From IMG/VR virus record IMGVR_UViG_3300035701_000003: a stretch of DNA of 64,000 nucleotides; one strand, written 5' to 3'. The position numbers and the translations under genes are program-made. Each line of letters starts with the position of its first letter. Within the stretch, counting starts at the first letter, position 1. Of this stretch, positions 1-60,447 are shown piece after piece. The stretch is from a virus. The notes beneath the pieces were generated by a model. The model was not told the origin of the DNA, did no database searches, and was given only the letters and a program-made list of their open reading frames with translations.

Positions 1-687
1 GTAACAGGTCCTACTGGATATACTGGTTATACAGGTTATACTGGAGCTAATTCAACAGTAACTGGTCCTACTGGTTATACAGGTTATACTGGTCCTAATA
101 TTACAGGTTATACTGGTTACACTGGTTATACTGGAGCTAATTCAACAGTAACAGGTCCTACTGGTTACACTGGTTACACAGGTCCTAATATAACTGGTTA
201 TACAGGTTACACTGGTCCTACTGGTTATACAGGTTATACTGGTCCTAATATAACTGGTTATACAGGTTATACTGGTTATACTGGAGCTAATTCAACAGTA
301 ACTGGTCCTACTGGTTATACAGGTTATACTGGTCCTAATATAACTGGTTATACAGGTTACACTGGTCCTACTGGTTATACAGGTTATACTGGTCCTAATA
401 TAACTGGTTATACAGGTTATACTGGTTATACTGGAGCAAATTCAACAGTAACAGGTCCTACTGGTTATACAGGTTATACTGGTTATACTGGTTATACTGG
501 AGCTAATTCAACAGTAACAGGTCCTACTGGATATACTGGTTATACTGGTCCTAATATAACTGGTTATACAGGTTATACAGGTCCTACTGGTTACACTGGT
601 TACACAGGTCCTAATATAACTGGTTATACAGGTTATACAGGAGTTACAGGTTATACAGGTTATACAGGTTATACAGGTTATACTGGA
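1..687 (+). repeat. Collagen-coding 9-bp repeat tract 1 (ggt tat act/aca) with GPNIT and GANSTVT interruptions
   Basis: Directly visible tandem GGTTATACT-type units. Confidence 0.95.
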
Positions 688-1704
688 ACTCAATATCCCT
701 GGGAAGGAGCTTGGGCCACCTCAACTTTATATCATGTGAATGATTGTGTAAGTAACGGAGGAAGTGGGTATGTTTGTAAGACACAGCATACCTCTGGTGT
801 CTTTGCTGATGATTTAACAGCTGCTAAATGGGAATTATTAGTATCTATAGGAGCTACTGGATATACTGGATATACGGGCGCTGCAAGTACTGTTACAGGT
901 CCTACTGGTTACACAGGTTATACTGGTCCTAATATAACAGGTTATACTGGTTATACTGGTTATACTGGTTATACTGGTTATACTGGACCAAATATAACAG
1001 GTTATACTGGTTATACTGGTCCTACTGGATATACTGGATATACAGGTCCTAATATAACAGGTTATACTGGTTATACTGGTTCTACTGGTTATACTGGTTA
1101 TACTGGTTATACTGGTCCTAATATAACAGGTTATACTGGTTATACTGGTTATACTGGTTATACTGGTTATACTGGACCAAATATAACAGGTTATACTGGT
1201 TATACTGGTCCTACTGGATATACTGGATATACAGGTCCTAATATAACAGGTTATACTGGTTATACTGGTTCTACTGGTTATACTGGTTATACAGGTTATA
1301 CTGGTCCTAATATAACAGGTTATACTGGTTATACTGGTTATACTGGTTATACTGGTTATACTGGTTATACTGGTTATACCGGGCCTTCACCAGCAAGAAC
1401 AGGAACTACTACTAATTCAGGTACTCCTACTCCTAATTGTGATACTACCGATATTTACACGGTAACTGCTCTGGTAACAGCCGCTACATTTGGTGCTCCT
1501 GCTGGAACCCCCGTTAATGGGCAGAAACTCATGATAAGAATATATGCCGCGGCCGCAAGAGTGTTGGATTGGAATGCTGTTTATGCAGCTAGAGGCGTGG
1601 CTAAACCAACAACTACAGTAGCAGGTAAGTATCAGTATATAGGATTTATTTATAATACAACTACATCTACCTGGGACTGTATAGCATCCATAACAGAGGC
1701 ATAG
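1..1704 (+). CDS. Collagen-like (Gly-Tyr-Thr) fibre protein, 5'-truncated, with an internal CBM5/12-like module and a C-terminal fibre-tip domain
   Basis: Frame 1 is open from base 1 ([11 protein letters not shown]...) to TAG at 1702-1704, so the track ORF at 736 is only its 3' part. Two G-X-T tracts flank [29 protein letters not shown], which resembles chitin-binding type-3 modules. Confidence 0.85.
850..1386 (+). repeat. Collagen-coding repeat tract 2, containing a 189-bp tandem duplication (925-1113 / 1114-1302)
   Basis: GPNIT units start at 925, 985, 1045, 1114, 1174, 1234 and 1303; the two 189-bp copies differ at one synonymous base by eye. Confidence 0.9.
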
Positions 1705-1705
1705 G

Positions 1706-2449
1706 ATGCCTTTTACATCCGTAACAGCTAGAGGTTCAATAAAGGTAAGCGGGATAGATAGTACATCCGTTCTAATAGCCGTTACTGCAAATATTGTGGT
1801 AGGTAAAATACTCATTGCTTGTATAGTAATTGATAACACAGCTACTGCAGATGGAGCTTCTTCTACTGTTACTATTGCAGATGACGCAGTTAATACATGG
1901 GTTAAAATAGGAGAATACACTGATTCAGACGGTGCAGCTTCTGATGGTGCTACTATTGCGATGTTTGCATCAAAAATAACAACACAAATTAATAGTGCTG
2001 CGAACATAACATTTACATTTAGTAATGCTTTAGATAAATATGGTTACTGTTTTGAAGTAACAGTAGGAAACGGTCATACTTTTGGTATTGGGCAGGTAGG
2101 TACTAATTCATCCGCAAGCGGTACTGCCGCCTCAATAGATGTTTCTGTAGCTGGTTTACCTTCTCAAGAATATCTTTTAGTAGGACTTGCTGGTGCGGAA
2201 GGAGAGGATAATGCAAAAGATAAGGATGCAGATTATACAGAATTATTAGATGACATTACATCAACTGTCGGTGCTTTAGCTGTAAATTTATCTATACACG
2301 TTCAAACTAGAGTAGCAACATTAACTGCTGATACCTGCACATCATCCGCCTGGACTTATACGAATTTAATAGCTATGCTTGCAGCTTTATATGAGACGGA
2401 TGTGGTACCGTATCAGATGTTAGAAATGTTTGAATCAACGAGAACATAA
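1706..2449 (+). CDS. Putative virion structural protein (beta-rich)
   Basis: 247 aa, rich in Ala/Thr/Val/Gly, starts 1 nt after the fibre gene stop; no family recognised. Confidence 0.5.
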   Translation: MPFTSVTARGSIKVSGIDSTSVLIAVTANIVVGKILIACIVIDNTATADGASSTVTIADDAVNTWVKIGEYTDSDGAASDGATIAMFASKITTQINSAANITFTFSNALDKYGYCFEVTVGNGHTFGIGQVGTNSSASGTAASIDVSVAGLPSQEYLLVGLAGAEGEDNAKDKDADYTELLDDITSTVGALAVNLSIHVQTRVATLTADTCTSSAWTYTNLIAMLAALYETDVVPYQMLEMFESTRT

Positions 2450-3124
2450 ATGTCAGCTATTATATCACCTTTTCCTTCTTTTCAGATTGTAACGCCACCC
2501 GAATCGGGAGGAGTTTTTGTGACTGGTGCCGAAAATGGTAATACTGCTGATTTTAGTGGTATATACCAAACTAATGGCACCTTTACTGCGTCTCAAACTC
2601 AAAAATATTTAGGAAGTTGGTCTTATAAAGCAGTAACTACTAATAATGCTACTCAACAAGCTTTTGCAAGAAAAAATTTACCCGCTGCTAATACTTATTA
2701 TGCACGATGTTATGTATATATTGACTCTACTACTGCGGGACCTAATAGCGGGTATGAAACTCTTCTAAATTTAAGAAGTGGTACCCAGGTTGGTTCTGCA
2801 TTATATCTTAATTATAACGGCTCTGGTGTTCCGTATAGATGGTGTTTTACGGTTCTTATTCCAGATTATTATTCAACTACTAATTTCAGTATGAATGCTT
2901 GGCATTGTATAGAAATATTAGTAACTATCGGCGGCGGCGCAAACTCTATTCATAAATGTTGGATAGATGCAACTTTAGTATTTGATTATAGTAATGGAAC
3001 TCAAACTGAACAATTAGAAAGAGTGTTAGTAGGGCCTCAAGGGGACGCAGGTGATAATTCCACAGTTTTAATTTATTTCGATAATGCAAAAATAGATACT
3101 AGTTACATTGGACTATATCCTTAA
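2450..3124 (+). CDS. Concanavalin/lectin-like beta-sandwich virion protein
   Basis: Aromatic-rich strands (TYYARCYVYID, WHCIEILV, KCWIDATLVFD, IYFDNAKID) typical of LamG or polysaccharide-lyase-like folds. Confidence 0.5.
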   Translation: MSAIISPFPSFQIVTPPESGGVFVTGAENGNTADFSGIYQTNGTFTASQTQKYLGSWSYKAVTTNNATQQAFARKNLPAANTYYARCYVYIDSTTAGPNSGYETLLNLRSGTQVGSALYLNYNGSGVPYRWCFTVLIPDYYSTTNFSMNAWHCIEILVTIGGGANSIHKCWIDATLVFDYSNGTQTEQLERVLVGPQGDAGDNSTVLIYFDNAKIDTSYIGLYP

Positions 3125-3140
3125 TGAATATAGGAGATAT

Positions 3141-3182
3141 ATGGAAACAACTATAGTGACGTGTTCCTTATATATCTACTAA
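3141..3182 (+). other. 13-codon micro-ORF (METTIVTCSLYIY) with a strong Shine-Dalgarno
   Basis: TAGGAG at 3131-3136, ATG at 3141, TAA at 3180-3182; 22 nt upstream of the giant glycosyltransferase. Confidence 0.3.
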
Positions 3183-3204
3183 ACTAAAAAAAAAGGAAAG
3201 AATA

Positions 3205-6200
3205 ATGTTGTTTTCTGTATGTACTATAATGAAGAACGAGGCCGGAACCCTTCCTAAACTGGCTTTATCCTTAAAGGATTTTTTAGTTAATGGCGGAGTA
3301 TGGGTTTGTACAGATACAGGTTCTACGGACGATTCCGCGAATGTAGCACGTTCTTTAGGGGCGATTGTTTACGAAGAGGGGGAAAAGTTTATAAAAGTTA
3401 TTACTAAAGTAAAAGCCGATAAAATAAATAAAAGATTTCTTGTCCCCGGGGAACCTATTATAGTAAGGGAAGGAGATAGATTATTTGATTTTGCTTCCGC
3501 AAGGAACTACTGCGCTGATAAAGCTCCTACTAACATGGTTATAGCGGTTGATGGAGACGAATTCTTTACAAAATTGGATTTTAATAAAATAAATGAATTT
3601 ATAGATTCTGGTATAGAGATGTTTGAAACTGAATTTATCTTCGCGCGTACTGAATACGGAGAACCTGCCATTCAGTTTGTACAAAATAGATTTTATGATA
3701 AGAGAGTTATGCAGTACTCTGGTATAGTACATGAAATACCCGTTGGAAATACAAATAGAATAAAAAGATTACCTACTCATATTTATATGCTCGAGCATGG
3801 TCAAGAACTTGGTAAAATACACAGATCAAGTTATCTAACAGGGTTAGCCTTAGATTGCTACGAACATAGGGATAAGGATAGACAGAGCCATTATTTCGCA
3901 AGAGAATTATTATATAGCGGAAGATATAAGTCGGCTATTGCTGAATTCAAACGTCATCTTACTCTAGGGGGTTGGGTACTAGAAGCAGCCCAGTCTATGA
4001 TATTTATAGGTGATTGTTATGGAAGACTTAATATGCCCGAAGAACAAATTGAGTGGTATAATAGGTCTATATATTTTAATTCCGACAGAAGAGAAGCTTT
4101 TATTAGAATGGCGGAATTCTATAGACATAATCAAAACATTAAAGCTTGTGCTGCTTATGCGGCCGCAGCTCTTGTAATTCCCTATACGGATTACTATGCT
4201 AATAACATGGATCATTATAGACAATATCCTCACGAGTTGCTTTATTGGGCCTGTGGGTGGATAGGTAATATTAAAGAAGCGCAGGATCATATAATAGAAT
4301 GTTTAAAATATCAACCTGATAATCTCGTATATCTAAGAGATACTCAATATTATTTTGAATATCCTGCTCAGAGTATAGAAGGATGGATATCCTTCCTTGA
4401 ATGTCAATGGCTTTATAATACAGCTAAAAAAATGAATTCCATATTAGAAATAGGATCTTGGGAAGGTAAGAGTTCCCATGCTTTACTTTCTGGTTGTAAA
4501 GGTAAAGTAACCTGTGTTGATCACTTTCAAGGCTCGTCCGATCCCTCGGATTTATCCTATATTATAGCTAAGAAAAAAGATATTTATACGAGTTTTATAA
4601 AAAATGTAGGGCACTTTAAGAATCTCGAAGTTATAAGAGCATCTAGCGAAGAAGCTTCCGAAATTTTGAAGGGTAGAAAATTTGATATGATATTTATTGA
4701 TGGAACCCATACTTATGACGAGGTAAAAAAAGATATTAATTTATGGCAAAATAGAACTAATATTTTATTAACGGGGCATGATTATGGATTTAAAAATCTT
4801 GGTGTGAAACCTGCTGTTGATGAACTATTAGGTATTCCAGATGAAATAGTTGGTAGTATATGGGCTGTAAATGTAAGTAAAAGAACCTCTAACACATCTC
4901 CTTCTCCAGTTACTCAAAATATACCTAAAAAAATATTTACTATATGGTTAAATAAGGAAAAAGAGTTACCTCCCCTTATTCAAAAATGCATAAATTCTCA
5001 AAAACTAGAAGGTTACGAACACAAATTAATTACTCTTGATAACTGTTTTAAAGATTCTAATTATATACAAAGTTTTCTTAGTTTATCCGATGATCAAAAG
5101 ATATGGACAAAGGCAACCGATTATTTACGCATATACTATTTATATACAGAAGGGGGTATTTATTTAGACGCTGATGTTGAAGTATTACAAGCAAAGACTT
5201 TCGACCATTTACTAAACGCCCGCATGTTTGTAGCAAGAGAAACTAACGGGTACTTAGGGTCTGCCGTAATAGGCGCTGAGAAAGGATATCCTTTCCTTAA
5301 ACAGTGGTTGGATGCTATGACTACTGAATTTAAAGGAGATGATAATAAATATTTTGAACCTTCTATGGAATTACTTACAGTTGGTTATCATGAAAGGAAT
5401 TGGTATAAAGAAGGTTTTGTTATTCTTTCATACGATTACTTTTTTCCTTACGATCATTTAAATAATACTGTTAATATAACTGATAATACTATCGCCTATC
5501 ATTATTTTGCGAAAGGTTGGAAAGAAGATGATTCTCCCACCGTTTCTATTATAATTCCTACTTTGGGTAGAGAACAAGGGTTGCAAAATTGTTTAAATTC
5601 TATTAAATATTTAAATTATCCTCAAGACAAAATAGAAACTATAGTTATTGAAGATAAACCGCGGTTAGGTGTTCCTTTACGAATAAAAGAGGGTTATGAA
5701 AAATCTATGGGAGAGTATATTTGTTATGCTGCCAATGATATGGAGTTCACTCCTAATAGTTTAAGATTAGCTATAAAAGATTCTATAAAATATAATAAAC
5801 GATTAGTAGCTTTTGATACTGGTGTAAGGAACGAGCAGGATTATATTTGCGAGCATTTTGTAATAAAGAGAAGTTTAGTTGAACAGTTGGGTGGTATATT
5901 CGATACCCGATTTAAGCACTATTGTTGTGATACTTTACTTTGGGAAAAAGCCTTTAAACTTAACGAAACAATGATTTCAAAAGGGTTTGTAAATCATTAT
6001 CATTATTCGAGAATAGGCTCTGGAATGCCCATTGATAATATCAATGAACTTGCTATAGTGTCTGTAGACGAAGATAGAACATTGTTAACGGAATTACGCA
6101 GTGAAAAAACTGATATAATAAAATTTAAAAGAGAGCGAAAGATTAATAGATTAGCGTTACCTATAACGAGAGGCTGTAATAGAAGATGTCCCGAATGTAC

Positions 6201-6816
6201 TGCTGTTGAAAGAGAAGGATTTCTAGCTAACCCTATATCTATTGTAGAATTAAAAGAAGTAGGTAATTTAATAGGATCTATTGAAAAGATCGAAGTTACA
6301 GGAGGAGAACCTAGTTTTCATCCAAAGTTTAAAGAAATATCGGAGAATTTACACAAATGGTTTCAATGTAAAGATATTATGCTTTTAACAAATGGTTGGG
6401 CTTTTAGTAAAGATGACAATCTTCCAATTTTATTAAATTATGATAGAGTTTATATAACCCATTATAATGATAACTTTGCGAAGTTATATGAAGAGAAATC
6501 TAATACTCATCTTGTAAAAAAATTAGAAAGTTACTTAAAAAATTATCCTAAGATACAATTCTGGCCCCAAGATATGGATAGTCATAATCCCATTAAGGAA
6601 CCTGTTCCTTGGGCAAGCGGTTGCTTATATGATTATGATAAGAGCGACATGATTAGTTATCACGAGGGACAATTGTATGGGTGTTGTACCGCGTGGCAGT
6701 TAGACTATAGAGGTAAAGGGATTCCTCTTACTAAGGAGTGGCGAGACCATCTTAGCGAAATAGAACTTCCCTGTAATAAATGTTTTCTTGGAATAGAAGT
6801 AAAGAAACTTATTTAA
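3205..6816 (+). CDS. Multi-domain enzyme: GT2-TPR + class I SAM methyltransferase + GT32 (DXD) + GT2 + radical SAM
   Basis: N-terminal SVCTIMKNE...DTGSTD...VDGDE (GT2); TPR-like helices; ILEIGSWEGKSS...IFIDGTHTY (Methyltransf_24-like); IPKKIFTIW...EGGIYLDADV (GT32); VSIIIPTLGR (GT2); GCNRRCPEC, TGGEP, LTNG (radical SAM). Confidence 0.85.
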   Translation: MLFSVCTIMKNEAGTLPKLALSLKDFLVNGGVWVCTDTGSTDDSANVARSLGAIVYEEGEKFIKVITKVKADKINKRFLVPGEPIIVREGDRLFDFASARNYCADKAPTNMVIAVDGDEFFTKLDFNKINEFIDSGIEMFETEFIFARTEYGEPAIQFVQNRFYDKRVMQYSGIVHEIPVGNTNRIKRLPTHIYMLEHGQELGKIHRSSYLTGLALDCYEHRDKDRQSHYFARELLYSGRYKSAIAEFKRHLTLGGWVLEAAQSMIFIGDCYGRLNMPEEQIEWYNRSIYFNSDRREAFIRMAEFYRHNQNIKACAAYAAAALVIPYTDYYANNMDHYRQYPHELLYWACGWIGNIKEAQDHIIECLKYQPDNLVYLRDTQYYFEYPAQSIEGWISFLECQWLYNTAKKMNSILEIGSWEGKSSHALLSGCKGKVTCVDHFQGSSDPSDLSYIIAKKKDIYTSFIKNVGHFKNLEVIRASSEEASEILKGRKFDMIFIDGTHTYDEVKKDINLWQNRTNILLTGHDYGFKNLGVKPAVDELLGIPDEIVGSIWAVNVSKRTSNTSPSPVTQNIPKKIFTIWLNKEKELPPLIQKCINSQKLEGYEHKLITLDNCFKDSNYIQSFLSLSDDQKIWTKATDYLRIYYLYTEGGIYLDADVEVLQAKTFDHLLNARMFVARETNGYLGSAVIGAEKGYPFLKQWLDAMTTEFKGDDNKYFEPSMELLTVGYHERNWYKEGFVILSYDYFFPYDHLNNTVNITDNTIAYHYFAKGWKEDDSPTVSIIIPTLGREQGLQNCLNSIKYLNYPQDKIETIVIEDKPRLGVPLRIKEGYEKSMGEYICYAANDMEFTPNSLRLAIKDSIKYNKRLVAFDTGVRNEQDYICEHFVIKRSLVEQLGGIFDTRFKHYCCDTLLWEKAFKLNETMISKGFVNHYHYSRIGSGMPIDNINELAIVSVDEDRTLLTELRSEKTDIIKFKRERKINRLALPITRGCNRRCPECTAVEREGFLANPISIVELKEVGNLIGSIEKIEVTGGEPSFHPKFKEISENLHKWFQCKDIMLLTNGWAFSKDDNLPILLNYDRVYITHYNDNFAKLYEEKSNTHLVKKLESYLKNYPKIQFWPQDMDSHNPIKEPVPWASGCLYDYDKSDMISYHEGQLYGCCTAWQLDYRGKGIPLTKEWRDHLSEIELPCNKCFLGIEVKKLI

Positions 6817-6822
6817 TATATT

Positions 6823-7503
6823 ATGCCTTCTGGAAGATCAACAGCCGCTCGCGAAATAGCGGAACAAATGGATACCAAATATGGTATTACCCAACCTAGC
6901 TTTCTTACTCCATTGATAGTTCAGATATTTATGGTTTTGACCAAACCTATAAGGGAGGCTTTATATGCTTATTTACAGGTTCAAAAAGCAGCTTTAAATA
7001 CAGCGAAAGCAAAACTTGTAAGAAATGCTTTAAAAGCCGATGGTTTAGCAGAACAATTATCCGTTCTTCAAACTACTACGGCCGCTGCTTTCCAACCAAT
7101 TACTCAATTTTTACAATATTTACCTCTGGATACTATTATTCATGAAATACCTTTTGCTGAAGAATTTGTGCATAAGGATGCTCCTAAGGTTGATATTTTT
7201 AACACACTGGCAGATATATCGCCAGACTTCGCTGAATTTTTGAAATCTTTAGCTGATGCTCTCCCTGTAAAAATTCCTTTAAGCGCTATATCTTCTATGT
7301 TCGGAGAAAATTTTGAATTTTTTGAAGGTATAGAAAATTTTCAAGATTTAAGAGAAAAAGTAGAAGAATTAGAGTTTCGCTTAGCGAGAACTGTTGCTGT
7401 ATCTTCTTACGCGCAAGCTGGTTCTTCTTATATAGATATTCAACTTAGAAATATTGATGTGTATATGGATGTTTTAGTTACTTTAAATACTGGAGCTTTA
7501 TAA
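6823..7503 (+). CDS. Hypothetical helical protein in the baseplate module
   Basis: 226-aa ORF abutting the gp25-like gene; no motif recognised. Confidence 0.45.
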   Translation: MPSGRSTAAREIAEQMDTKYGITQPSFLTPLIVQIFMVLTKPIREALYAYLQVQKAALNTAKAKLVRNALKADGLAEQLSVLQTTTAAAFQPITQFLQYLPLDTIIHEIPFAEEFVHKDAPKVDIFNTLADISPDFAEFLKSLADALPVKIPLSAISSMFGENFEFFEGIENFQDLREKVEELEFRLARTVAVSSYAQAGSSYIDIQLRNIDVYMDVLVTLNTGAL

Positions 7504-7989
7504 GTGGATATAGCAGGTCGTACAACTTGCGATCATATAGTAGGTAACTCTCCAGTAGGTTATACTTTATTAAACTGCCCTCGATGCGAGGGTAAAGGTA
7601 CCTATGGAGGATTCACTCTTACTAAAGAAGGTGACGTACCTACTGTATCTGGAGTAGACTATTTAAGACAAACTCTTGAAAAAGTATTTATTGAAAAGAA
7701 AAGACCTTCTGGTTATGGTTTTGATTATGATGTATTAATTGGTTTAGGAAGTAATGCTTCTTTAATGAATGTTCAACGCGAAGTACAGAGAACTGTTTTA
7801 TATTTAAAAAACCAGCAGCAAGCTAATAAAAAAACAGGAGTAATATACTCTCCTAATGAAGAAATATATGATGTAAAAGATATTAGGGTTGCTTTTAATA
7901 CTGCAGAACCCAGAAGAATAGATATTACCTTGACAGTAATAGCGTTATCTGGTAGAAGTATTGATTTAAGTTCTTCTTTGGAGAGGTAG
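7504..7989 (+). CDS. Baseplate wedge gp25-like protein with N-terminal CxxC
   Basis: GTG start; CPRCEGKG, YLRQTLEKVF, and RRIDITLTV; directly precedes baseplate J. Confidence 0.6.
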   Translation: MDIAGRTTCDHIVGNSPVGYTLLNCPRCEGKGTYGGFTLTKEGDVPTVSGVDYLRQTLEKVFIEKKRPSGYGFDYDVLIGLGSNASLMNVQREVQRTVLYLKNQQQANKKTGVIYSPNEEIYDVKDIRVAFNTAEPRRIDITLTVIALSGRSIDLSSSLER

Positions 7990-7994
7990 AAAAA

Positions 7995-9410
7995 ATGAGT
8001 AAAAGTTATAGTACTATCGTTCAGAGTATGCGGGATTATATAAAAGCCATTTATCCCTCAGCACAAACCCATGAGGGTAGCGTTTTAGATGATATAGTAA
8101 TTGCTGTACCTTCTCGTGAATTATCCCAATTATATGAAAAAGTAGATCTTGTATCGGAAGCTCAGTCTATAGAAACAGCCACTCAAGATGGTTTAGAGAA
8201 ATTAGGAAGTAATGTAAACAAATTCCAGAAATCAGCAATTCCTGCTACTGGTATAGTTACCTTTTTTAGTAGTACTGCTCCTACTTTTGATATTACTATT
8301 CCCGCTAATACTGTAGTATCTACAAGAGGAAGCGCTGGAGTTATTCCTAAGAAGTTTAGAACTCTTAGAAAAGTAGTTATGTATAAAGTTCTAGCCGGTT
8401 CTTATTTAAATTCCTCTAATGGTAAATATGAAATTTCAGCTGCTATTGAAGCTCTTACGCCAGGGCAAAATGGAGTAGTTGGAGCTAGAGCTGTAGATGC
8501 TATACAAGGTAGTATTACTGGAATAGAAGGAGTTTATAACGCTTCCGCTACTTCCGGAGGGGAAGATTTTGAAAGCGAGCAAGATTTTGCTCAAAGAATT
8601 GCAGCTGCTTTTACTGGTAATATTTTAGGTACCGAAGATGGTTATCTTTCCGAAGCTTTAGCAATTGATGAAATAACTTCTGCTACCGTAGTAGGTCATG
8701 GTAATACAGGTAGAGATATCATGAATGCTGTTGATATTTACTATAAAGGTTCTAGAATGAGTACTTATACTGATATATTTACTGTACCTCAAGGGGTGCT
8801 TATTAGTGAAGTAGTCTTAACTAAACAACCTGTAGTAGTTGATACCGTAACTACTTTAATTTATGGTAATACTGGTTCTATAATAGGAGTATCTCCCGCT
8901 TGGAGTTTGGTAAAAGATACGGGAGTTTATAAAGGTTCTATTTATGGATTAGATAAAATCGAATTTTCTGGGGAATTAGTTGCTAGTTTAGGTACCGTAT
9001 ATGTTACTTATTCTTATAATTCTTTATCCGAGGTTTTGCAAAATATGTTTACTAAAACTAATAAGGACCTTTTAGACATATCTATTTTAGTAAAAGAAGC
9101 GAGTGCTATATCTATAGATATTGATTTGGATGTAACCGTTTTAGCTGGTTTCGATACTTTGTTAGTAGCCTCTGCTATTCAAGATGTAGTCGCTTCTTTT
9201 TTGGATGGTTTATCTATTGGACAAGAATTACAAACAGCCGATGTGGCAAGAGAAGTTTTAAATACACCCGGTGTAGATGATGTGTTACTACCTTTTACTT
9301 TATTCAGGGCCTCCGATGGTTCTATATTACCTAACGCTAGTAATAATTTAGTTATACCTTCTGATAGTTATGCTACGGCTGGTACTATTACTATTACTAC
9401 TTCTATATAA
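7995..9410 (+). CDS. Baseplate J-like wedge protein
   Basis: ATGIVTFF...ITIPANTVV, IEALTPGQNGVVGA, YNASATSGGEDFESEQDFAQRI, LSIGQEL...TPGVDDV. Confidence 0.85.
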   Translation: MSKSYSTIVQSMRDYIKAIYPSAQTHEGSVLDDIVIAVPSRELSQLYEKVDLVSEAQSIETATQDGLEKLGSNVNKFQKSAIPATGIVTFFSSTAPTFDITIPANTVVSTRGSAGVIPKKFRTLRKVVMYKVLAGSYLNSSNGKYEISAAIEALTPGQNGVVGARAVDAIQGSITGIEGVYNASATSGGEDFESEQDFAQRIAAAFTGNILGTEDGYLSEALAIDEITSATVVGHGNTGRDIMNAVDIYYKGSRMSTYTDIFTVPQGVLISEVVLTKQPVVVDTVTTLIYGNTGSIIGVSPAWSLVKDTGVYKGSIYGLDKIEFSGELVASLGTVYVTYSYNSLSEVLQNMFTKTNKDLLDISILVKEASAISIDIDLDVTVLAGFDTLLVASAIQDVVASFLDGLSIGQELQTADVAREVLNTPGVDDVLLPFTLFRASDGSILPNASNNLVIPSDSYATAGTITITTSI

Positions 9411-9421
9411 GGATTGTAACT

Positions 9422-11428: not shown

Positions 11429-11441
11429 TTAGAGGGTACCC

Positions 11442-16523: not shown

Positions 16524-16536
16524 TTAAATAAATTAT

Positions 16537-19028: not shown

Positions 19029-19033
19029 GGGAA

Positions 19034-22553: not shown

Positions 22554-22564
22554 GAGAAAAAGAT

Positions 22565-22948: not shown

Positions 22949-22950
22949 TA

Positions 22951-23457: not shown

Positions 23458-23461
23458 ATTT

Positions 23462-24196: not shown

Positions 24197-24200
24197 AGCT

Positions 24201-26170: not shown

Positions 26171-27210
26171 ATATACTAATTACAGGAATTACTGGATTTG
26201 TAGGTTCCCACATGGCGGATTATCTCCTACTTAACACTGACGCTGATATATACGCGATGAGACGCTGGCGAAGCGACGACCGCAATATAAAACATTTATA
26301 TGGAAATTCTCGAGTTACCTTTATAGAATCCGATTTAATGGATAGAGGCAGTATAGCTTCCATTATTTCAGAAGCCGAACCTGATTATGTATTTCATTTC
26401 GCTGCCCAAAGTTACCCCATGAGTAGTTTTATTACTCCTATCTATACCCTAAACATTAACGTGGTAGGCACAACTAACTTATTAGAAGAGTTAAGAATAG
26501 CTAGGGATAGAGGTATATGCGATCCTATCATAATATCTGTAAGTAGTTCCGAAGTATACGGTAATCCGAGACTAGATGAAATTCCTATAAAGGAGACTAA
26601 TCCTATAAGAGCCGCTAACCCTTATTCTATAAGTAAGGTAGCTCATGATCTTCTTTCTCAGATGTATCATCAAGCTTATGGTTTAAAAATTATTATAACT
26701 AGAATGTTTTCGCATGAGGGAGCTAGGCGCGGTAGAATGTTTGCTATTTCTAATTTTGCTTATCAAATAGTACAGCATGAAAAGGAATTCCGCAGTAAAT
26801 ATACTACTATGAATAATAAAAAAGTAACTTTAGTTCACTGGCCCCCCCCTGTCCATAGTTTAAAAATAAAAGTAGGTAATCTTAATTCCGTTAGAACATA
26901 TTCTCATATTGACGATGCTGTAAGGGCCTATTGGATTTGTGCTATCGATGGAGAAGTAGGTAACGTGTATAATATAGGAGGGGATTACACATGTACTGTA
27001 GGCGATGTATTGGATAACTTGTTACATAAGAGTGTACTTCCTTTTGAATCTTTCTTTACCGAAATAGACCCTGGAAGAATAAGACTAACTGATATTACTT
27101 TACAGATACCAGATTGCGCTAAATTTAAACATTTAACGGGTTGGAAACCTAAAAAATCATTAGATGATATTACTACTGATTTGTTAAATTACTGGAGGGA
27201 AATGTTATGA
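26167..27210 (+). CDS. gmd: GDP-mannose 4,6-dehydratase-like SDR
   Basis: LITGITGFVGSH, FHFAAQS, SSSEVYG, NPYSISK, FSHEGARRG, GNLNSVR. Confidence 0.75.
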   Translation: MNILITGITGFVGSHMADYLLLNTDADIYAMRRWRSDDRNIKHLYGNSRVTFIESDLMDRGSIASIISEAEPDYVFHFAAQSYPMSSFITPIYTLNINVVGTTNLLEELRIARDRGICDPIIISVSSSEVYGNPRLDEIPIKETNPIRAANPYSISKVAHDLLSQMYHQAYGLKIIITRMFSHEGARRGRMFAISNFAYQIVQHEKEFRSKYTTMNNKKVTLVHWPPPVHSLKIKVGNLNSVRTYSHIDDAVRAYWICAIDGEVGNVYNIGGDYTCTVGDVLDNLLHKSVLPFESFFTEIDPGRIRLTDITLQIPDCAKFKHLTGWKPKKSLDDITTDLLNYWREML

Positions 27211-28229
27211 GTTTTTACAAAAATAAAAAAGTTTTAGTTACCGGGGGTACAGGATTAATTGGTATACCTCTCGTTATAAAACTTGTGCGGGCCGGGGCTA
27301 ATGTATACGTAACTAGCGCTGATTCTTTTGAAAGATTTCATGTGATGAAAGAATTTATTACTGAGTTTGAATACGTTCAAAATTTCGTATCAGCTAACTT
27401 AGAAAACTACGATTCTTGCTACTCCACCGCTGCTGGTATAGATTATGTATTTCAGTTAGCTGGTTCTAAAGGAGCGGCTAGTATTGGAAAAACAAAAGCT
27501 GCTACTTTTCTTACTTCTCATCTTTTTATCAATCTTAATATGTTAAAAGCCGCGAGAGAGTGTGGCGTGAAAAAATATTTATTAACTAGTACTACTGGCA
27601 TTTACCCTCCAGGGAGCCCCTATATAGAATATACTTCATGGGAAGCTCCAGCAGGAGAAAGCGATAAGTATTCTTCTTGGGCAAAGAGGATATCCGAATT
27701 AGCAGCAGAAGCCTTCATGATAGAGCATGATTGGCCGGGTATAGTTATAGTTCGTCCCGGTAGCATTTATGGTCCTTGGGATAACTTCGATAAAGATACT
27801 TCCATGGTAGTTGGTTCTTTAATAGGTAAATTTGTTAGGAACGAAGAATCCCCTGTAAAAGTTTATGGGGATGGTAGTTCTATAAGAGATTTTACTTATA
27901 CCAACGATATTGCAGATGGAATGCTTCTAGCTTTGGAGAAGTCAGGGAATTGTGAAGTATTTAATTTAAGTAGTGGTAAAGAATATCATGTAAAGGAGCT
28001 GGTTGAATTAATTTATAAATATACTTCCGAAGATAGTAAATCCAGAGAATATATATGGACTGGACCTACTTCATTTAAGATGGATAAGAGAGTTTTAGAT
28101 ATTACAAAAGCACAGACCTTGTTAGGGTATAAACCCTCCGTAGGGTTGGAGGAAGGTATAAAAAAGACCGTTCGGTGGTACAGGCAAAATAAAGATATAG
28201 CAAATATTCGTTATAATGCATTTAAATAA
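27207..28229 (+). CDS. NAD-dependent sugar epimerase/reductase (Fcl/GME-like)
   Basis: VLVTGGTGLIG, YSSWAK, RPGSIYGPWDNF, GDGSSIRDF. Confidence 0.8.
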   Translation: MSFYKNKKVLVTGGTGLIGIPLVIKLVRAGANVYVTSADSFERFHVMKEFITEFEYVQNFVSANLENYDSCYSTAAGIDYVFQLAGSKGAASIGKTKAATFLTSHLFINLNMLKAARECGVKKYLLTSTTGIYPPGSPYIEYTSWEAPAGESDKYSSWAKRISELAAEAFMIEHDWPGIVIVRPGSIYGPWDNFDKDTSMVVGSLIGKFVRNEESPVKVYGDGSSIRDFTYTNDIADGMLLALEKSGNCEVFNLSSGKEYHVKELVELIYKYTSEDSKSREYIWTGPTSFKMDKRVLDITKAQTLLGYKPSVGLEEGIKKTVRWYRQNKDIANIRYNAFK

Positions 28230-28241
28230 GGAGAAATAGAA

Positions 28242-29198
28242 ATGAACTTTTTTGAGGGAAAGCGCGTAGTAGTTACAGGAGCCGCTGGTCTTATAGGACA
28301 TGAAACTATTAGACAACTGCTCGATTTAGGAGCTATTGTTTTAGCTGTTATTTTTCAAAAAAGGGTACTGAAAGTTCCGCCTCACAAGAATTTAAATACT
28401 TTTTTTGGGGATCTTCGAGACTACCCTACTTGTCTGGGGGCACTGTATGGAGCGGATATAGTTATTGATGCTGCTGCTGTCACGGGAGGAGCGAAAAAGC
28501 AAAAACTTAATCAACTTACCTTTGCTCGAGATAATACAGTAATACATGTAAATGTTATTACAGCCGCTGTTGAACAAGGCGTTTCTCGCTTTGGTTTTAT
28601 AGGAAGTTCTACTATGTATCCTGTGAGAGAAGTGGTTGTGGAGAGTGAGGGATTTGACGAAGATCCTTGGGAAGGTTATATGGGGGTTGGTTGGACTAAA
28701 CGTTATCTTGAAAAATTATGTATGTTATTTAATAATACTACTGATACTAAATTTGCTATTGCACGTACTACAGCTGTTTATGGCCCTCATGATGATTTTA
28801 ATTTAGAAACATGCCATGTAATTCCAGCTTTGGTTAATAAAATAGCCCATAGACAAGACCCTTTGGAGATATGGGGCGCTGGTGATGAAATACGTAACTT
28901 TATTTATGTAGAAGATTTCGTCAATGGTCTTTTAGAAATGATTAAGTATAAAACAGACGCGGATCCTGTTAACATAGCTAGTGTAGAAAAGTCTACTGTT
29001 AAAGATATAATAAAATATGGTATAGAATATATGGAGTATAAACCTGAACTTAATTTTGACTTATCTAAACCTACAATGCTTCCTAAAAGAATAGTAGATG
29101 TATATAAAGTGTATAAACTTTTGCAGTGGGAAGCAAAAACACCTTTGAAAGAAGGTATAGAAAAAACAATAAAATGGTATCAGGAGAATTATTTATGA
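28242..29198 (+). CDS. GDP-fucose synthase / ColC-like epimerase-reductase
   Basis: VVTGAAGLIG, YGPHDDFNLETCHVIPAL, IWGAGDEIRNFIYVED. The catalytic YxxxK appears as VGWTK, which is atypical. Confidence 0.75.
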   Translation: MNFFEGKRVVVTGAAGLIGHETIRQLLDLGAIVLAVIFQKRVLKVPPHKNLNTFFGDLRDYPTCLGALYGADIVIDAAAVTGGAKKQKLNQLTFARDNTVIHVNVITAAVEQGVSRFGFIGSSTMYPVREVVVESEGFDEDPWEGYMGVGWTKRYLEKLCMLFNNTTDTKFAIARTTAVYGPHDDFNLETCHVIPALVNKIAHRQDPLEIWGAGDEIRNFIYVEDFVNGLLEMIKYKTDADPVNIASVEKSTVKDIIKYGIEYMEYKPELNFDLSKPTMLPKRIVDVYKVYKLLQWEAKTPLKEGIEKTIKWYQENYL

Positions 29199-30145
29199 AG
29201 AAGAAAACCCTAAATGATTTTCAAACTTGGAAATTAAAAAGAGAACAACCTGTTGCTTGGATTACTGCTTATGATTTACCCCTTGCCCAAACCGCAGAGA
29301 AAGCCGAAATAGATATGATATTAGTGGGCGATAGCGGGGGTATGGTTCAATTAGGTTACGATAGTACCCATCCAGTTACTATGGATGAAATGATTATGAT
29401 GTCAAGAGCTGTGAGAAGGGGAGCTCCCAATACTTTTGTTATTGGGGATATGCCACAAGGATCTTACGAAGTGAGTGAAGAAGAAGCTGTAAGAAATGCT
29501 TTAAGATTTATAAAGGAGGCTGGTTGTGACGCTGTTAAATGCGAAGGTGGGGAAAGAGTATCTGATAAAGTACAGGCAATGGTTAACGCAGGTATTGTAG
29601 TTTTTGGTCATTTAGGGTTGACTCCTCAAAGTTCTGAAACTTTTGGAGGGTATAGAGTCCAAGGAAAAACAATTAAAAGTTTCGAAAGTATATTACAGGA
29701 TGCAGAAGCACTAGCCCAAGTAGGTATTTCAGCTTTACTGTTAGAAGCTATGCCCGCTACTCCTTCTCAGCAAATTGCTACGCTATTAAAAATACCAGTG
29801 TATGGAATAGGGGCGGGTCCTTTAGTAGACGGCCAATTAGTAATAGTTCACGACCTTTTAGGCTTTTATCAATCCTTCAGACCTTGGTTTGCTAAATGCT
29901 ATATACCAGATGTTATTCAAGACTTTATATATCATCTATCAGCATTAACTAATATAAAAGAAGCGGGGCGTAAAGAGAGAACCGATGGTTTCCTAGTATT
30001 AGCTCAAATGGCTATTGAACAATATATTTTAGAAGTTAAAACTAGAAAATTTCCTAGTGAAGAATATTGTTACCCTATTAAAGAAGAAGAATTAAATGAA
30101 TTAAAACAATCACAATATTGGAAAGAGACTTATGAAAGTAGCTGA
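29195..30145 (+). CDS. panB: Ketopantoate hydroxymethyltransferase homologue
   Basis: ITAYD, ILVGDS, IGDMP, VKCEG, GHLGLTPQS, LLEA, GIGAG...DGQ; the start at 29195 overlaps the upstream stop (ATGA). Confidence 0.9.
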   Translation: MKKKTLNDFQTWKLKREQPVAWITAYDLPLAQTAEKAEIDMILVGDSGGMVQLGYDSTHPVTMDEMIMMSRAVRRGAPNTFVIGDMPQGSYEVSEEEAVRNALRFIKEAGCDAVKCEGGERVSDKVQAMVNAGIVVFGHLGLTPQSSETFGGYRVQGKTIKSFESILQDAEALAQVGISALLLEAMPATPSQQIATLLKIPVYGIGAGPLVDGQLVIVHDLLGFYQSFRPWFAKCYIPDVIQDFIYHLSALTNIKEAGRKERTDGFLVLAQMAIEQYILEVKTRKFPSEEYCYPIKEEELNELKQSQYWKETYESS

Positions 30146-31976
30146 TTTTGTAATAAAATATCTTGAAGATTTAGGTATAAAAGAAGTATTTTTAGTATAT
30201 GGTTCTGCGAACGGGGATTTGGTGGATGCTTTTACTAGGATGAAAAAAATTAAATATGTATCTGTTATGCACGAACAGGCTGGTGGTTTCATGGCGGAAG
30301 GTTATGCTAGGGTCTCAAGAAATTTTGGGGTAGCTATAGCTACCAGCGGGCCAGGTGGTATGAATTTAATTACTCCCGCTGGAAATTGTTACTACGATTC
30401 TATACCTTGTCTTTTTATTACAGGACAAATAAGCACTCAATATTTAAGACCTTCCGATGAAGTGAGGCAAGTTGGATTTCAAGAATCAGATATGGTTGGA
30501 ATGATGAAGCCAGTAACTAAGTATTCTGTTATGGTTACCGAACCGAGATATATTAAATATGAACTTCAAAAAGCTTTACATTTAATGAGAGACGGAAGAC
30601 CTGGTCCAGTTCATTTAGACTTACCTCTTGATGTTCAAAAAGCGGAAATTGGCGAGTATAAATTAGTACCTTACCATATTCCTGAATTACATTCCGAAGG
30701 GCCTAAAGAATATATTGATAAGTTATATGAGTTGGCTAGTGATTTGGAACATGCTAAGAGACCAGTTTTATTAATAGGAGGAGGTTTTAGAAAAGACTCA
30801 AAACCTTTATTAGATTTGGGAAGATTATTAAAAATACCCTTAATCCCCACTTGGAATGCTTTGGACGTAGTAACTAATGATTATGAATATTACGGAGGAA
30901 ATGTTGGTACTTATGGAGGTAAGGGTAGAAATTTTGCTATACAAAATTGTGATTTACTAGTAGCGTTTGGTAGTAGAATTTCTGGAAGGATTACTGGAGG
31001 TAACCCTGCTTCCTTTGTAAGAGGGGCTAAGAAATGGACTATTGATATTGATTCTAATTTAACACAACCCCGGTTACAGCAGTTACCCTTTGATTACTAT
31101 ATAAATAACGACGCTTTTAGCAGCGCTTCTGATTTATTATCTATATTTAAGTCTGGTGGTAAACTTGTTGTTATTCCCGATTACTCCGAGTGGTGGAATA
31201 AGGTTAAAGAATGGAGAGATAAATATGATCCTGTAAAAGAAGAATACTATAAAAAAGATTATCCTATTAATCCTTACGTATTTGCAAGACTATTATCCAA
31301 AATACTTCCAAGTAACTCTATTATAGTTACTGATTGTGGAGGAAATGTGGTAGTGATGAATCAGGCTTTTGAAGTAAAACAAGGACAGAGATTTTTTAGT
31401 AATAATGGTAATTCTCCTATGGGTTTCTCTTTTTCGGGGGCTATAGGAGCCTGGTTTGCCTCTGATAAGAAACAACCCGTTATTTGTGTTATAGGAGATG
31501 GGGGTATGAATATGAATATTCAAGAATTACAGACTATAAAAACATATGGTGTAAATATAAAAGTCTTTATAATGAACAACCATATATATGGGATTACTAA
31601 AGCCTTTCAAGAAACAAATTTTCAAGGAAGAGCTGAAGCCTGCGGTCCTAAAGGTTACAACCCACCCGACTTTATTAAAATAGCCGAAGCTTATGGTATA
31701 AACTCTGTACGTATAAATAGTTCTAAGGAAATGGTTTCAAGAATACAGTTAGAAGTATTGGAAAAACCTCATACTGTTATTTGTGATATTGATTGCCATG
31801 AGTGGCATACTTACGAGCCCCGCGTAATCGGTTGGAACACGCCCATCGAAGACATGTATCCTTATTTAAAAAGAGAAGAATTTCTATCTAATATGATTAT
31901 TCCTCCCTTTGAAGGGTATGACTATAAAAATCCAAAGATGCCTGATATTATTCAGACTAATCAGGAGCAACCATGA
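30132..31976 (+). CDS. Thiamine-diphosphate enzyme, acetolactate synthase/YerE-like
   Basis: HEQAGGFMAEGY, TSGPGGMN, GQIST...RQVGFQE, GRPGPVHLDLP, GDGGMNMNIQELQT...NN. Confidence 0.85.
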   Translation: MKVADFVIKYLEDLGIKEVFLVYGSANGDLVDAFTRMKKIKYVSVMHEQAGGFMAEGYARVSRNFGVAIATSGPGGMNLITPAGNCYYDSIPCLFITGQISTQYLRPSDEVRQVGFQESDMVGMMKPVTKYSVMVTEPRYIKYELQKALHLMRDGRPGPVHLDLPLDVQKAEIGEYKLVPYHIPELHSEGPKEYIDKLYELASDLEHAKRPVLLIGGGFRKDSKPLLDLGRLLKIPLIPTWNALDVVTNDYEYYGGNVGTYGGKGRNFAIQNCDLLVAFGSRISGRITGGNPASFVRGAKKWTIDIDSNLTQPRLQQLPFDYYINNDAFSSASDLLSIFKSGGKLVVIPDYSEWWNKVKEWRDKYDPVKEEYYKKDYPINPYVFARLLSKILPSNSIIVTDCGGNVVVMNQAFEVKQGQRFFSNNGNSPMGFSFSGAIGAWFASDKKQPVICVIGDGGMNMNIQELQTIKTYGVNIKVFIMNNHIYGITKAFQETNFQGRAEACGPKGYNPPDFIKIAEAYGINSVRINSSKEMVSRIQLEVLEKPHTVICDIDCHEWHTYEPRVIGWNTPIEDMYPYLKREEFLSNMIIPPFEGYDYKNPKMPDIIQTNQEQP

Positions 31977-33145
31977 AATATAAACTAGCTCAAAATACTA
32001 TTCCTAAAGAGGATATAGATAAACTTATAGAGTGGTTAAAAACTTATCCTCCTCTTACTATGGCTGCGGGTACCTTAACTAAACAATTTGAAGAAGAATG
32101 GAGTAAAACTATAGGTGTTAGATACTCTGTTTTTTGTAATTCGGGTTCCTCTGCTAATCTACTTGCTTATAGTGCTATTATTAATACTTCGTCGCCATCT
32201 TTTTATAAAAAGCATGTTGTTTTGTGCTCTGCCGGCTGGTCTACTACTTTATCCCCTCTTTTGGAAAGGCAAATTCCATGCGTGTTATGTGATGCTGATA
32301 GAGATACTTTTGGGATTGATATGAAATCTCTAAAGTATCTTTTGGATACTATGGATATTTCTTTAGTAGTATTAGTTCATACTCTGGGAGTCCCGAATAG
32401 GATGAATGAGATTTTAGGACTTAAGGAACTATATGGATTTCTTTTAATGGAGGATAGCTGCCCAGCAGTGGGTTCTAAGTATAATGACCAATATACGGGA
32501 ACTTTTGGGGATATTAGTACTTTTTCTTTTTACTACGGGCATCAACTTTCTACTATAGAAGGGGGTATGGTTTGTACTAACGACGAATCTTTATATCACG
32601 CTCTTTTAACCTTAAGAAGTCATGGTTGGGGAAAGAATTTACCTTTAAATATAAGGCACGAAGCTGAATTACAAAATAGAATAGATGAACACCATTCTGA
32701 TTTTACTTTTTATTCTGATGGTTACAATCTCCGCCCTACAGAAATAAACGCTTTTTTAGGTTTAGAACAGATAAAGAGGTTGCCATATATTACGAATGTT
32801 CGTAACTTTAATTTTCAGCATTATAGAAATCTATTAAAGAATAAATTTATAGTTCAAAATCCTCCTATGCACTCTACTGTTTCTTGTATAACTTTTCCTT
32901 TTATAACTAATGGCGCCGCGGAGGCTAGAAAAGTTTTTGAAGTATTAAAGAAAGAGGAAATAGAGACACGTCCTATTTCTGGTGGGAGTTTAGGATTACA
33001 ACCTTTTTGGTTTGCTTATAATGGTGATTATAGTAGTTTTTCTTTTGCGGACAAATTACATAAATTTGGCTTTGTATTACCGTGTCACCCCGAAATGAGA
33101 CTAGAGGATATAGATTATATTTGCGATTTGTTGTTGAATATATAA
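31973..33145 (+). CDS. PMP-dependent NDP-4-keto-6-deoxysugar 3-dehydratase (ColD-like, DegT fold)
   Basis: NSGSSANLL; SFYYGHQLSTIEGG has His where aminotransferases have Lys; LRSHGW; no Cys-rich Fe-S motif as in E1/DdhC. Confidence 0.75.
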   Translation: MKYKLAQNTIPKEDIDKLIEWLKTYPPLTMAAGTLTKQFEEEWSKTIGVRYSVFCNSGSSANLLAYSAIINTSSPSFYKKHVVLCSAGWSTTLSPLLERQIPCVLCDADRDTFGIDMKSLKYLLDTMDISLVVLVHTLGVPNRMNEILGLKELYGFLLMEDSCPAVGSKYNDQYTGTFGDISTFSFYYGHQLSTIEGGMVCTNDESLYHALLTLRSHGWGKNLPLNIRHEAELQNRIDEHHSDFTFYSDGYNLRPTEINAFLGLEQIKRLPYITNVRNFNFQHYRNLLKNKFIVQNPPMHSTVSCITFPFITNGAAEARKVFEVLKKEEIETRPISGGSLGLQPFWFAYNGDYSSFSFADKLHKFGFVLPCHPEMRLEDIDYICDLLLNI

Positions 33146-33157
33146 AAGGTATTAAGT

Positions 33158-33655
33158 ATGTTACAAGAAGCTATGGTGTCTAGTAAGACTGTGGAACACA
33201 TAACCCCCCAATTTTTCTTTAATCGTTTAGACAAAGAATTTCATTTTACCTTAGACCCCAGCGCTACTCATATTAATCATAAATGTGAAAAGTATTTTAC
33301 TATAAAAGAAAATGGTTTATTACAGGATTGGAGTAAAGATATTGTATTTATGAACCCCCCCTACGGAGGACATACTGGAGATTGGATTAAAAAAGCTTAT
33401 GAAGAAAGCCTTAAAGGAGCCGTAGTAGTGTGTTTAATAGCTGTAGGGACTAATAGGAGTTATTGGCACGATTATATTTTTCCATATGCTTCTCAAATAA
33501 GATGGTTAAGAGGTACTTTGAAATTTAGTGATATGAAGTCTACCGCTCCTTTTGCTTGTGTCGTAGTAGTTTTTAATAAGAGACTTTCTATCAATTATCA
33601 TTTTCAACATGTTTGGAATGTTTCTTCTAAGGATAAAAAAAGAAAGAGGAAATAG
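33158..33655 (+). CDS. dam: Phage-type DNA N6-adenine methyltransferase
   Basis: FTLDP...YFT..ENGLLQDW...FMNPPY...WIKKAY...SYWHDYI. Confidence 0.85.
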   Translation: MLQEAMVSSKTVEHITPQFFFNRLDKEFHFTLDPSATHINHKCEKYFTIKENGLLQDWSKDIVFMNPPYGGHTGDWIKKAYEESLKGAVVVCLIAVGTNRSYWHDYIFPYASQIRWLRGTLKFSDMKSTAPFACVVVVFNKRLSINYHFQHVWNVSSKDKKRKRK

Positions 33656-33762
33656 AGACACGTCCTATTTCTGGTGGGAGTTTAGGATTACAACCTTTTT
33701 GGTCTGCTTATAATGGTGATTATAGTAGTTTTTCTGAGGCTAAAAAAGTTTTTGAAGTATTA
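33639..33762 (+). repeat. Circularly permuted copy of 32921-33043 (internal part of the ColD-like gene)
   Basis: 33639-33735 matches 32947-33043 (97 nt, 1 mismatch); 33736-33762 matches 32921-32947 (27 nt, 1 mismatch). Confidence 0.9.
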
Positions 33763-33765
33763 GAT

Positions 33766-34194
33766 ATGAGACAATATAATTATACATTTGCAGAATTATT
33801 AGATAGAATAGGAATAGTCCAAATGAAAGCTATCTTTATTCAAGAATATAAAGATAGTTATGATGAAGAAATAAAAGCTATTAAACATGATTTAGATCTT
33901 TTAATAAAAGAAAAGAATATAACTATAACCAGTACTTTATTACATGCTATAGAAGTACTTATGTTAAGTAATAGATATATTTGGGAAAATGAAACTAAGG
34001 TTAGGAGTTTAGGAAATAATTTTCAACAAGAGAATTTGTTAAGATTAACCCATTCTATTAACGGTGTTAGAAATAACGCTAAAAATATTATAAGTAAAGA
34101 AATAGGGGAGAGAGTTGATTTAAAGATAGACTGTCTCGCCTCGGATCTTATTAAAGAGTTTGGTAACTGGAATATTAACTATGAAATACAGTAG
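33766..34194 (+). CDS. Helical hypothetical protein resembling DUF6165-type proteins of glycosylation loci
   Basis: TFAELLDRIGIV...NRYIWENE...NGVRNNAKNIIS pattern; the family call is from memory only. Confidence 0.4.
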   Translation: MRQYNYTFAELLDRIGIVQMKAIFIQEYKDSYDEEIKAIKHDLDLLIKEKNITITSTLLHAIEVLMLSNRYIWENETKVRSLGNNFQQENLLRLTHSINGVRNNAKNIISKEIGERVDLKIDCLASDLIKEFGNWNINYEIQ

Positions 34195-60446: not shown

Positions 60447-60447
60447 C

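Follow-up and report, generated by a model that had tools for sequence, protein, structure and literature searches.

The closest described counterpart of the system considered here is the glycosyltransferase (GT) SgtA of Clostridioides difficile, a 358-aa protein in which a GT-A domain is followed by four tetratricopeptide repeats (TPRs), whose gene adjoins bclA3 and which in vitro, with a requirement for Mn2+, adds beta-O-linked N-acetylglucosamine (GlcNAc) to Thr (and Ser) of collagen-repeat peptides (PMC7157674). Among viruses, chlorovirus PBCV-1 encodes A064R, a soluble enzyme of several domains, two GTs and a methyltransferase, that assembles the terminal part of a virion-protein glycan in the cytoplasm and methylates it (PMC9614988); mimiviruses carry fibril glycosylation clusters in which a sugar-nucleotide pathway and transferases put unusual sugars on virion fibrils (PMC9614988); and mycobacteriophage GTs encoded near structural genes O-glycosylate virion proteins (Freeman et al. 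2023, cited in PMC12619734). We analysed 64,000 nt of the virus record IMGVR_UViG_3300035701_000003 (the window), with the focus on positions 1-34,194, a single-strand-uniform stretch of an uncultured large phage that a sequence-only reading had proposed as one self-contained virion glycosylation system. We consider it probable that two separable glycosylation modules make up the whole explanation: module A (1-6816), a cassette holding a collagen-like fibre gene and a multi-domain GT2-TPR enzyme, and module B (13800-33145), an island of transferase and sugar-nucleotide genes. Particular to this case are the five-domain enzyme with its radical S-adenosylmethionine (SAM) tail, a CBM5/12 domain inside the fibre, and a conserved 20-kb island inherited apart from the cassette.

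The fibre gene at the start of the window proved to be as Thr-rich as the sequence-only reading had described it, with Thr at Y in 97 of 98 G-X-Y triplets and Tyr at X in 81 of 98; it matched Pfam Collagen at E 3e-30 and PHROG tail-fibre families at E 1e-57, the latter matches leaning on the repeats. Its almost proline-free G-Y-T collagen sequence forms two runs, interrupted by GPNIT and GANSTVT, around the CBM5/12 domain (CBM_5_12, PF02839; nt 673-870, E 6.7e-6, 26.5 bits, just above the Pfam cut-off), and a C-terminal globular domain of ~100 aa follows. Judged from this domain, the fibre may itself bind polysaccharide. The CBM5/12 segment has a 54%-identical counterpart in locus L209.

The multi-enzyme was likewise found where it had been placed, within the structural module (Table 1), and a hydropathy scan gave no membrane segment in it. 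The N-terminal part resembles SgtA in being a soluble GT-A + TPR protein of ~360-390 aa encoded beside a Gly-x-Thr collagen-like gene, but it forms the head of a 1203-aa polypeptide that continues with a methyltransferase, two further GT domains and the radical SAM tail, and its proposed acceptor is a phage fibre with Gly-Tyr-Thr (GYT) rather than the Gly-Pro-Thr of BclA3. The AlphaFold2 (AF2) model of the GT2-TPR domain (predicted local distance difference test score, pLDDT, 93.5) has a GT-A beta-sheet core and helical repeats at aa 210-383. Across 40 phage and bacterial members, the motifs D37-T-G-S-x-D42 (DTGSxD) and D116-x-D118 (DxD) are invariant, and so are R226, Y230, R233, E234, E260, R296 and Y331 in the TPR half, a degree of conservation across phages and bacteria that fits one shared acceptor type. 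A second GT2 domain occurs alongside GT2-TPR in ~77 loci and the methyltransferase together with the GT32 domain in ~21. The radical SAM tail, weakly similar to MoaA and to peptide maturases, had no counterpart in ~100 other GT2-TPR loci, nor in L317, a 63%-identical relative whose enzyme homologue (1179 aa) ends without it. In L317, six extra genes (4912-8813), one with the GpV apex motif of a spike tip, separate the enzyme gene from the next baseplate gene; the same two genes lie 6 nt apart in the window (6816-6823).

When the Protein Data Bank (PDB) was searched by fold with the GT2-TPR domain, the best matches were SunS and ThuS (7msn, 7msk), while Listeria GmaR (7x9r, 22ao) was matched in both the profile search (E 7e-14) and the fold search, and TPR matches appeared in sequence and fold searches. 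SunS and ThuS are peptide (glycocin) S-glycosyltransferases that form Cys-S linkages on the sublancin and thurandacin precursors, and GmaR is the Listeria flagellin O-GlcNAc transferase; all share with the window domain a GT-A part joined to a helical or TPR domain and a peptide or protein acceptor, but they differ from it in the acceptors used and are only 12-14% identical in sequence. Among predicted viral structures, a Pithovirus protein ranked first (TMq 0.88), and the matches after it came from other giant viruses (Harvfovirus, Indivirus, Solivirus, cedratvirus and Marseillevirus) and, as multi-domain proteins, from uncultured tailed phages. The window domain was 25-29% identical to the clostridial family, and one bacterial homologue belongs to a Clostridia family of thousands of ~360-aa TPR-containing GT2 proteins; the homologues matched by a Sedimentibacter member of that family bore generic names only, SgtA not being named among them.

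To survey gene neighbourhoods, an alignment profile of the 390-aa GT2-TPR domain (A1) was used, which recovered at least 140 viral loci, and the best 80 of these were scored for a collagen-like open reading frame (ORF) no more than 10 kb away. Such an ORF was present at 66 of the 80 loci, on the same strand in 63 of the 66, at a median distance of 1.9 kb and with a median Thr share at Y of 0.77, against 2 of 32 control loci (Fisher p = 2.5e-14). One of the two control loci with such an ORF came from 20 structural loci of relatives of L001, in which GT2-TPR was found in none, and the other from 12 loci that share the methyltransferase domain only. The pairing was kept in 23 of 26 clusters formed at 60% identity, so duplicates do not drive it. 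L001, found by a scan with the 1203-aa protein, is a 31.6-kb contig of an SU10-like podovirus unrelated to the window phage, in which a 527-aa GYT collagen gene stops 20 nt ahead of the gene for a 971-aa enzyme homologue, between capsid and adaptor genes.

The pairing extends to bacteria, where a G-x-T collagen-like ORF, usually ending at the start of the enzyme gene, stood beside 51 of 80 loci encoding homologues of mostly 24-30% identity (L235-L314); the pairing is old and survives at this identity in bacterial chromosomes. These loci came from Bacilli and Clostridia metagenome-assembled genomes (MAGs), the gamma proteobacterium HdN1, Prosthecobacter and a Nanopelagicales MAG, the last three carrying collagen-adjoining homologues well beyond the spore-formers. 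The isolated Actinomycetia phage DSL-LC01 (L316, OQ999401) encodes a 27%-identical homologue with two annotated collagen genes 3 kb before it, and between them and the GT homologue, beside a Tyr/Thr-rich fibre, is a gene annotated as tryptophan halogenase (locus 535-7077); no collagen was seen near the homologue of Pseudomonas phage PaBG. In the open-access papers and preprints searched, nothing was found that describes phages pairing collagen with GT2-TPR. These data support the view, based on gene neighbourhoods, that collagen fibre and GT2-TPR enzyme form a functional pair, and we consider it likely that the fibre is glycosylated by the cassette enzyme. A virion target would fit the position of the enzyme gene among structural genes and the matches of the collagen to PHROG tail-fibre families. 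Thus, of the proposal that the phage builds its own glycan coat on fibre or capsid, the fibre-enzyme pairing held, while the part that made the island a component of one system did not. Should phage fibres routinely be sugar-coated by a dedicated SgtA-like enzyme, receptor binding, stability and immune recognition in many uncultured phages would hinge on a modification of which host-range prediction from sequence takes no account, and Thr-glycosylated, proline-poor collagens would be a common viral building material.

Inheritance of the island was followed in relatives of the window phage. A megablast of 25 kb of the window against cultured phages gave no matches, and single-protein scans of viral and metagenome contigs found no baseplate-J relatives; the relatives were located via baseplate J with narrow alignments, an alignment of 18 sequences being too diverse as a query. 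Two complete relatives, G001 (171,836 bp, with terminal repeats) and G002 (181,733 bp), were compared gene by gene and scanned for collagen, and the records of these and of G003-G005 were searched with A1. G001 and G002 retain the island genes (27-66% identity) between fibre genes upstream and a sigma factor downstream: the transferases of 13800-19975 at 37-48% identity and in the same order in both, and the sugar-nucleotide genes of 26167-33145 at 37-66%, with the island order unchanged in G002 and these latter genes locally rearranged in G001. The GT2+GT4 fusion gene was present in contigs of seven relatives (G001-G006 and G009). Neither complete genome had a match to 1-6816 or a collagen-like ORF anywhere, and A1 found no GT2-TPR domain in the five relatives. 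Since the complete relatives keep the island without collagen or GT2-TPR, the genes of island and cassette assort independently, an outcome that the sequence-only reading had itself named as refuting its proposal of a single system. The converse comparison agrees, as homologues of the island GT, radical SAM, PanB, thiamine pyrophosphate (TPP) and DegT genes were found in none of ~100 other GT2-TPR loci; co-occurrence across phage contigs, named earlier as the check on such a system, thus holds for collagen with GT2-TPR and fails for the island genes.

The island is an ancestral element of this lineage and the cassette an add-on, common so far to the window phage and L317 only; apparently the cassette was inserted recently, when the lineage already carried the island. 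This also bears on whether the two modules form one integrated system, in which the island supplies unusual sugar nucleotides and extension GTs and the glycan is completed on the fibre after priming by GT2-TPR. Both modules do fit into 34 kb of one strand, on either side of baseplate and fibre genes, the cassette enzyme has just three GT domains and no sugar-nucleotide enzymes and could use island products, and L317 also bears the cassette, though its contig stops before the island position. Against this, retention of the island in complete relatives without fibre or GT2-TPR means that another acceptor must exist, the ~100 other cassette loci manage without any island gene, and the cassette looks recently acquired, so that we regard an integrated system as unlikely. 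Given separate inheritance, relatives without collagen are the place to look for the target of the island, as no fibre confounds the search there.

Several results weigh against the reading of the two modules given so far. No collagen was found within the flank in 14 of the 80 viral GT2-TPR loci, and in a forward test on 119 viral loci chosen solely by the GYT-repeat DNA pattern, the GT2-TPR domain was detected in 7 by tblastn (41-49% identity) and in 14 by profile (within ~5 kb), which means that many such collagens have no linked enzyme. The two closest homologues of the window GT2-TPR domain, L135 and L137 (54-56% identity), had neither a collagen-like ORF nor one rich in Ser/Thr at 4-10 kb or less from the enzyme; their acceptor is elsewhere or of another kind. 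We place the GT2-TPR domain in the SgtA family only provisionally, on the strength of its domain layout, its length, the genes around it and the large Clostridia family. Promoter and terminator scans performed no better than shuffled sequences and so do not support co-expression with the structural genes, and in G006 the island does not lie beside fibre genes. The loci in which only one partner was seen, whether enzyme or GYT collagen, would suit an explanation of the adjacency as a by-product of hypervariable fibre regions, with the enzyme acting on a non-collagen target. Yet a collagen occurred in just 1 of the 20 structural-module controls, the pairing persists at bacterial distances, the TPR-half residues are invariant across phage and bacterial members, and SgtA itself acts on collagen-repeat peptides in vitro (PMC7157674); a by-product of this kind seems to us scarcely credible. 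The GYT-repeat DNA pattern also matched giant-virus MAG contigs (L016, L020, L025, L039, L077, L078 and L083), and no GT2-TPR family member was seen near these GYT loci, whose flanks are short.

For the preferred two-module reading we infer every chemical step and both acceptors from sequence, as follows. Module A would be a mobile cassette of a Gly-Tyr-Thr fibre and a soluble multi-enzyme whose N-terminal GT-A + TPR part works like SgtA: the TPR part would hold the collagen-like chain while the GT-A part puts the first sugar on Thr at Y in the cytoplasm, after which the fibre glycan would grow through the action of the second GT2 and GT32 domains, with the methyltransferase capping a sugar. 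Because the repeats are almost without proline, Thr-linked sugars may also stabilise the collagen triple helix, which would explain why fibre and enzyme travel together. A064R offers a parallel to such an enzyme, but one from a eukaryotic virus, with unrelated domains and with N-linked glycans of the capsid protein as its substrate (PMC9614988). The N-x-T sequons found in the collagen interruptions were considered as sites of N-glycosylation and rejected, since no GT41 (HMW1C-type) enzyme or oligosaccharyltransferase was among the matches and the Asn is not conserved in L001, where the equivalent interruptions of the partner collagen read mostly A-S-T-V-T, without Asn; sequons are expected in any case wherever Asn precedes x-Thr in a Thr-rich repeat and therefore lend N-glycosylation no support.

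Module B is a tightly packed island of ~20 kb that starts after a 334-nt gap (Table 1). The sequence-only reading had counted 8 GT genes with about 11 GT domains; Pfam supports 6 genes with 9 domains, and the count of 8 and ~11 is reached by adding two GT-A-like domains (the 228-aa protein and the N-terminus of the 546-aa protein) that are recognised by ESM-Atlas or structural likeness and not by Pfam. Module B holds seven of these GT genes, with eight GT domains, the GT-A-like ones included. Its methyltransferase, B12 radical SAM and nucleoside-diphosphate-sugar enzymes were confirmed by Pfam. The 4,6-dehydratase matched GDP_Man_Dehyd (Pfam, E 5e-65) and fell below every NCBIfam cut-off, dTDP-glucose 4,6-dehydratase scoring slightly over Gmd; PanB was above its NCBIfam cut-off, and the two Fcl-like short-chain dehydrogenase/reductases (SDRs) are GDP-fucose-synthase-like reductase/epimerases. 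The family names point to a chemistry of 4,6-dehydration, RfbH/ColD-type 3-dehydration, a YerE-like TPP branch and PanB-type hydroxymethylation. No nucleotidyltransferase was found, which implies dependence on host sugar nucleotides, so that the system is not strictly self-contained as had been proposed. Small ORFs at 16254-16523, 18444-19028 and 19950-20477, the DUF4406 and Fic genes at 22529-23457 and a Zn-ribbon protein have the look of later insertions, with no counterparts in G001 or G002.

Table 1. Positions of the two modules and adjoining genes in the window
Feature	Position	Strand	Basis or remark
Collagen-like fibre (proposed module A acceptor)	1-1704	+	5'-open ORF, 567 aa; Pfam Collagen, PHROG
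Two genes, 247 and 224 aa, between fibre and enzyme	1706-3124	+	Part of cassette in this lineage
Multi-enzyme, 1203 aa, five domains	3205-6816	+	Three genes after collagen, directly before baseplate genes
GT-A (GT2) + TPR, aa 1-390, proposed initiating domain	3205-4374	+	Pfam GT2, AF2 model, fold matches
Methyltransf_24 (class I methyltransferase), aa ~400-555	within 4390-6108	+	Pfam
GT32-type Gly_transf_sug/Caps_synth, aa ~570-770	within 4390-6108	+	Pfam
Second GT2, aa ~780-960	within 4390-6108	+	Pfam
Radical SAM tail, aa 969-1203	6109-6816	+	CxxxCxxC and C-terminal Cys cluster
Baseplate and fibre genes (Baseplate_J 7995-9410)	6823-13466	+	Kept in all relatives
GT4	13800-15065	+	Pfam
GT4	15052-16257	+	Pfam
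GT2+GT4 fusion	16537-18447	+	Pfam
GT4	18980-19975	+	Pfam
546-aa protein, C-terminal Methyltransf_11, GT-A/GT2-like N-terminal 360 aa	20913-22553	+	Pfam (methyltransferase); ESM-Atlas features/structure (GT-A)
DUF4406 (nucleoside deoxyribosyltransferase-like) insert	22529-22948	+	No counterpart in G001/G002 islands
Fic/DOC insert	22951-23457	+	No counterpart in G001/G002 islands
GT2	23276-24196	+	Pfam
B12-binding radical SAM	24144-25487	+	Pfam
228-aa GT-A-like protein	25484-26170	+	ESM-Atlas features or structure only
Sugar-nucleotide genes: 4,6-dehydratase, two Fcl-like SDRs, PanB, acetolactate synthase (ALS)/YerE-like TPP enzyme, RfbH/ColD-like DegT-type pyridoxal phosphate (PLP) enzyme	26167-33145	+	

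Module B would be an older, lineage-conserved set of soluble enzymes, with a pathway leading from the 4,6-dehydratase to a deoxy and probably branched sugar; its product would be a complex, methylated oligosaccharide put together directly on an acceptor in the cytoplasm. A simple hydropathy scan gave no credible membrane segment in the island proteins, the single signal being the N-terminal nucleotide-binding motif of an SDR, and Pfam and NCBIfam searches of ORFs of at least 80 aa in 1-34194 gave no polyprenyl-phosphate glycosyltransferase, flippase, polymerase, ligase or oligosaccharyltransferase; these two results together are why the glycan would be assembled directly on a cytoplasmic acceptor. 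Because relatives keep the island without collagen, the fibre is at most one acceptor among others. One alternative has the island remodel host envelope glycans (lipopolysaccharide core, capsule or S-layer), rather than the virion, for superinfection exclusion or to stop progeny adhering to lysed cells. Published readings of GTs in phage tail-fibre regions favour O-antigen modification (PMC7029224; PMC10202952), and a GT4 enzyme with a lipid-linked acceptor may sit at the membrane periphery and have no membrane helix, but the undecaprenyl-phosphate pathway families and credible membrane segments are missing from the ORFs just described, and a 20-kb pathway kept at 27-66% identity in a lytic-looking lineage is heavy machinery for a transient change of the host. 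We judge envelope remodelling improbable.

Glycosylation of the phage DNA as an anti-restriction hypermodification is another use to which the island might be put, in that phage GTs can make multi-sugar DNA glycans (Pyle et al. 2024, cited in PMC12619734) and the window phage has 7-deazaguanine genes and DNA methyltransferases nearby. However, no gene of the thymidylate synthase family (PF00303), to which the hydroxymethylases belong, was found in the three complete island-bearing relatives G001-G003, in a search whose positive controls worked, and G001 and G002 have no counterparts of the queE and DpdA-like (7-deazaguanine) genes of the window; the island therefore depends on neither of the known routes to a base that can be glycosylated. 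Eight GT domains with C- and O-methylation would also go far beyond known DNA glycans, and we hold DNA as the acceptor to be very improbable.

By analogy with chloroviruses, mimiviruses and mycobacteriophages, our best guess, a tentative one, is that the island acts on a virion protein, either tail fibre or capsid. Candidate acceptors are two fibre-sized proteins of 668 and 674 aa encoded within 6823-13466, whose Ser+Thr content is 18-19%. The closest analogue of module B is the set of mimivirus clusters, which belong to a eukaryotic giant virus, make polysaccharides of 25-100 kDa and, taken as a cluster, are not homologous to the island (PMC9614988); in the mycobacteriophages, sugars are attached to C-terminal extensions of capsid and tail-tube subunits rather than to collagen repeats, few enzymes take part and a sugar-nucleotide island is absent. 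More doubtful is a fuller version, in which module B would be a virion glycosylation pathway common to this whole lineage of uncultured ~170-195 kb phages, placing a methylated branched-deoxy-sugar oligosaccharide on tail fibres or capsid and here also feeding the newly acquired collagen cassette, with the radical SAM tail further modifying the glycan or the Tyr/Thr-rich repeats. If module B does act on the virion, it would be the first equivalent in bacteriophages of the glycan factories of giant viruses.

The two genes between fibre and enzyme (1706-3124) had no Pfam or PHROG matches and no counterpart in G001 or G002, and a homologue of the second (2450-3124) sits ahead of the enzyme gene in L317. 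ORFs of no assigned family gave no usable match at relaxed Pfam thresholds. The Dam gene at 33158, just past the island, encodes a DNA methyltransferase and stands outside the glycan chemistry. The block at 58740-64000 has its counterpart directly upstream of the baseplate genes in G001 (96-101 kb) and G002 (84-88 kb), and hence the gene order of the window phage is permuted or rearranged relative to both.

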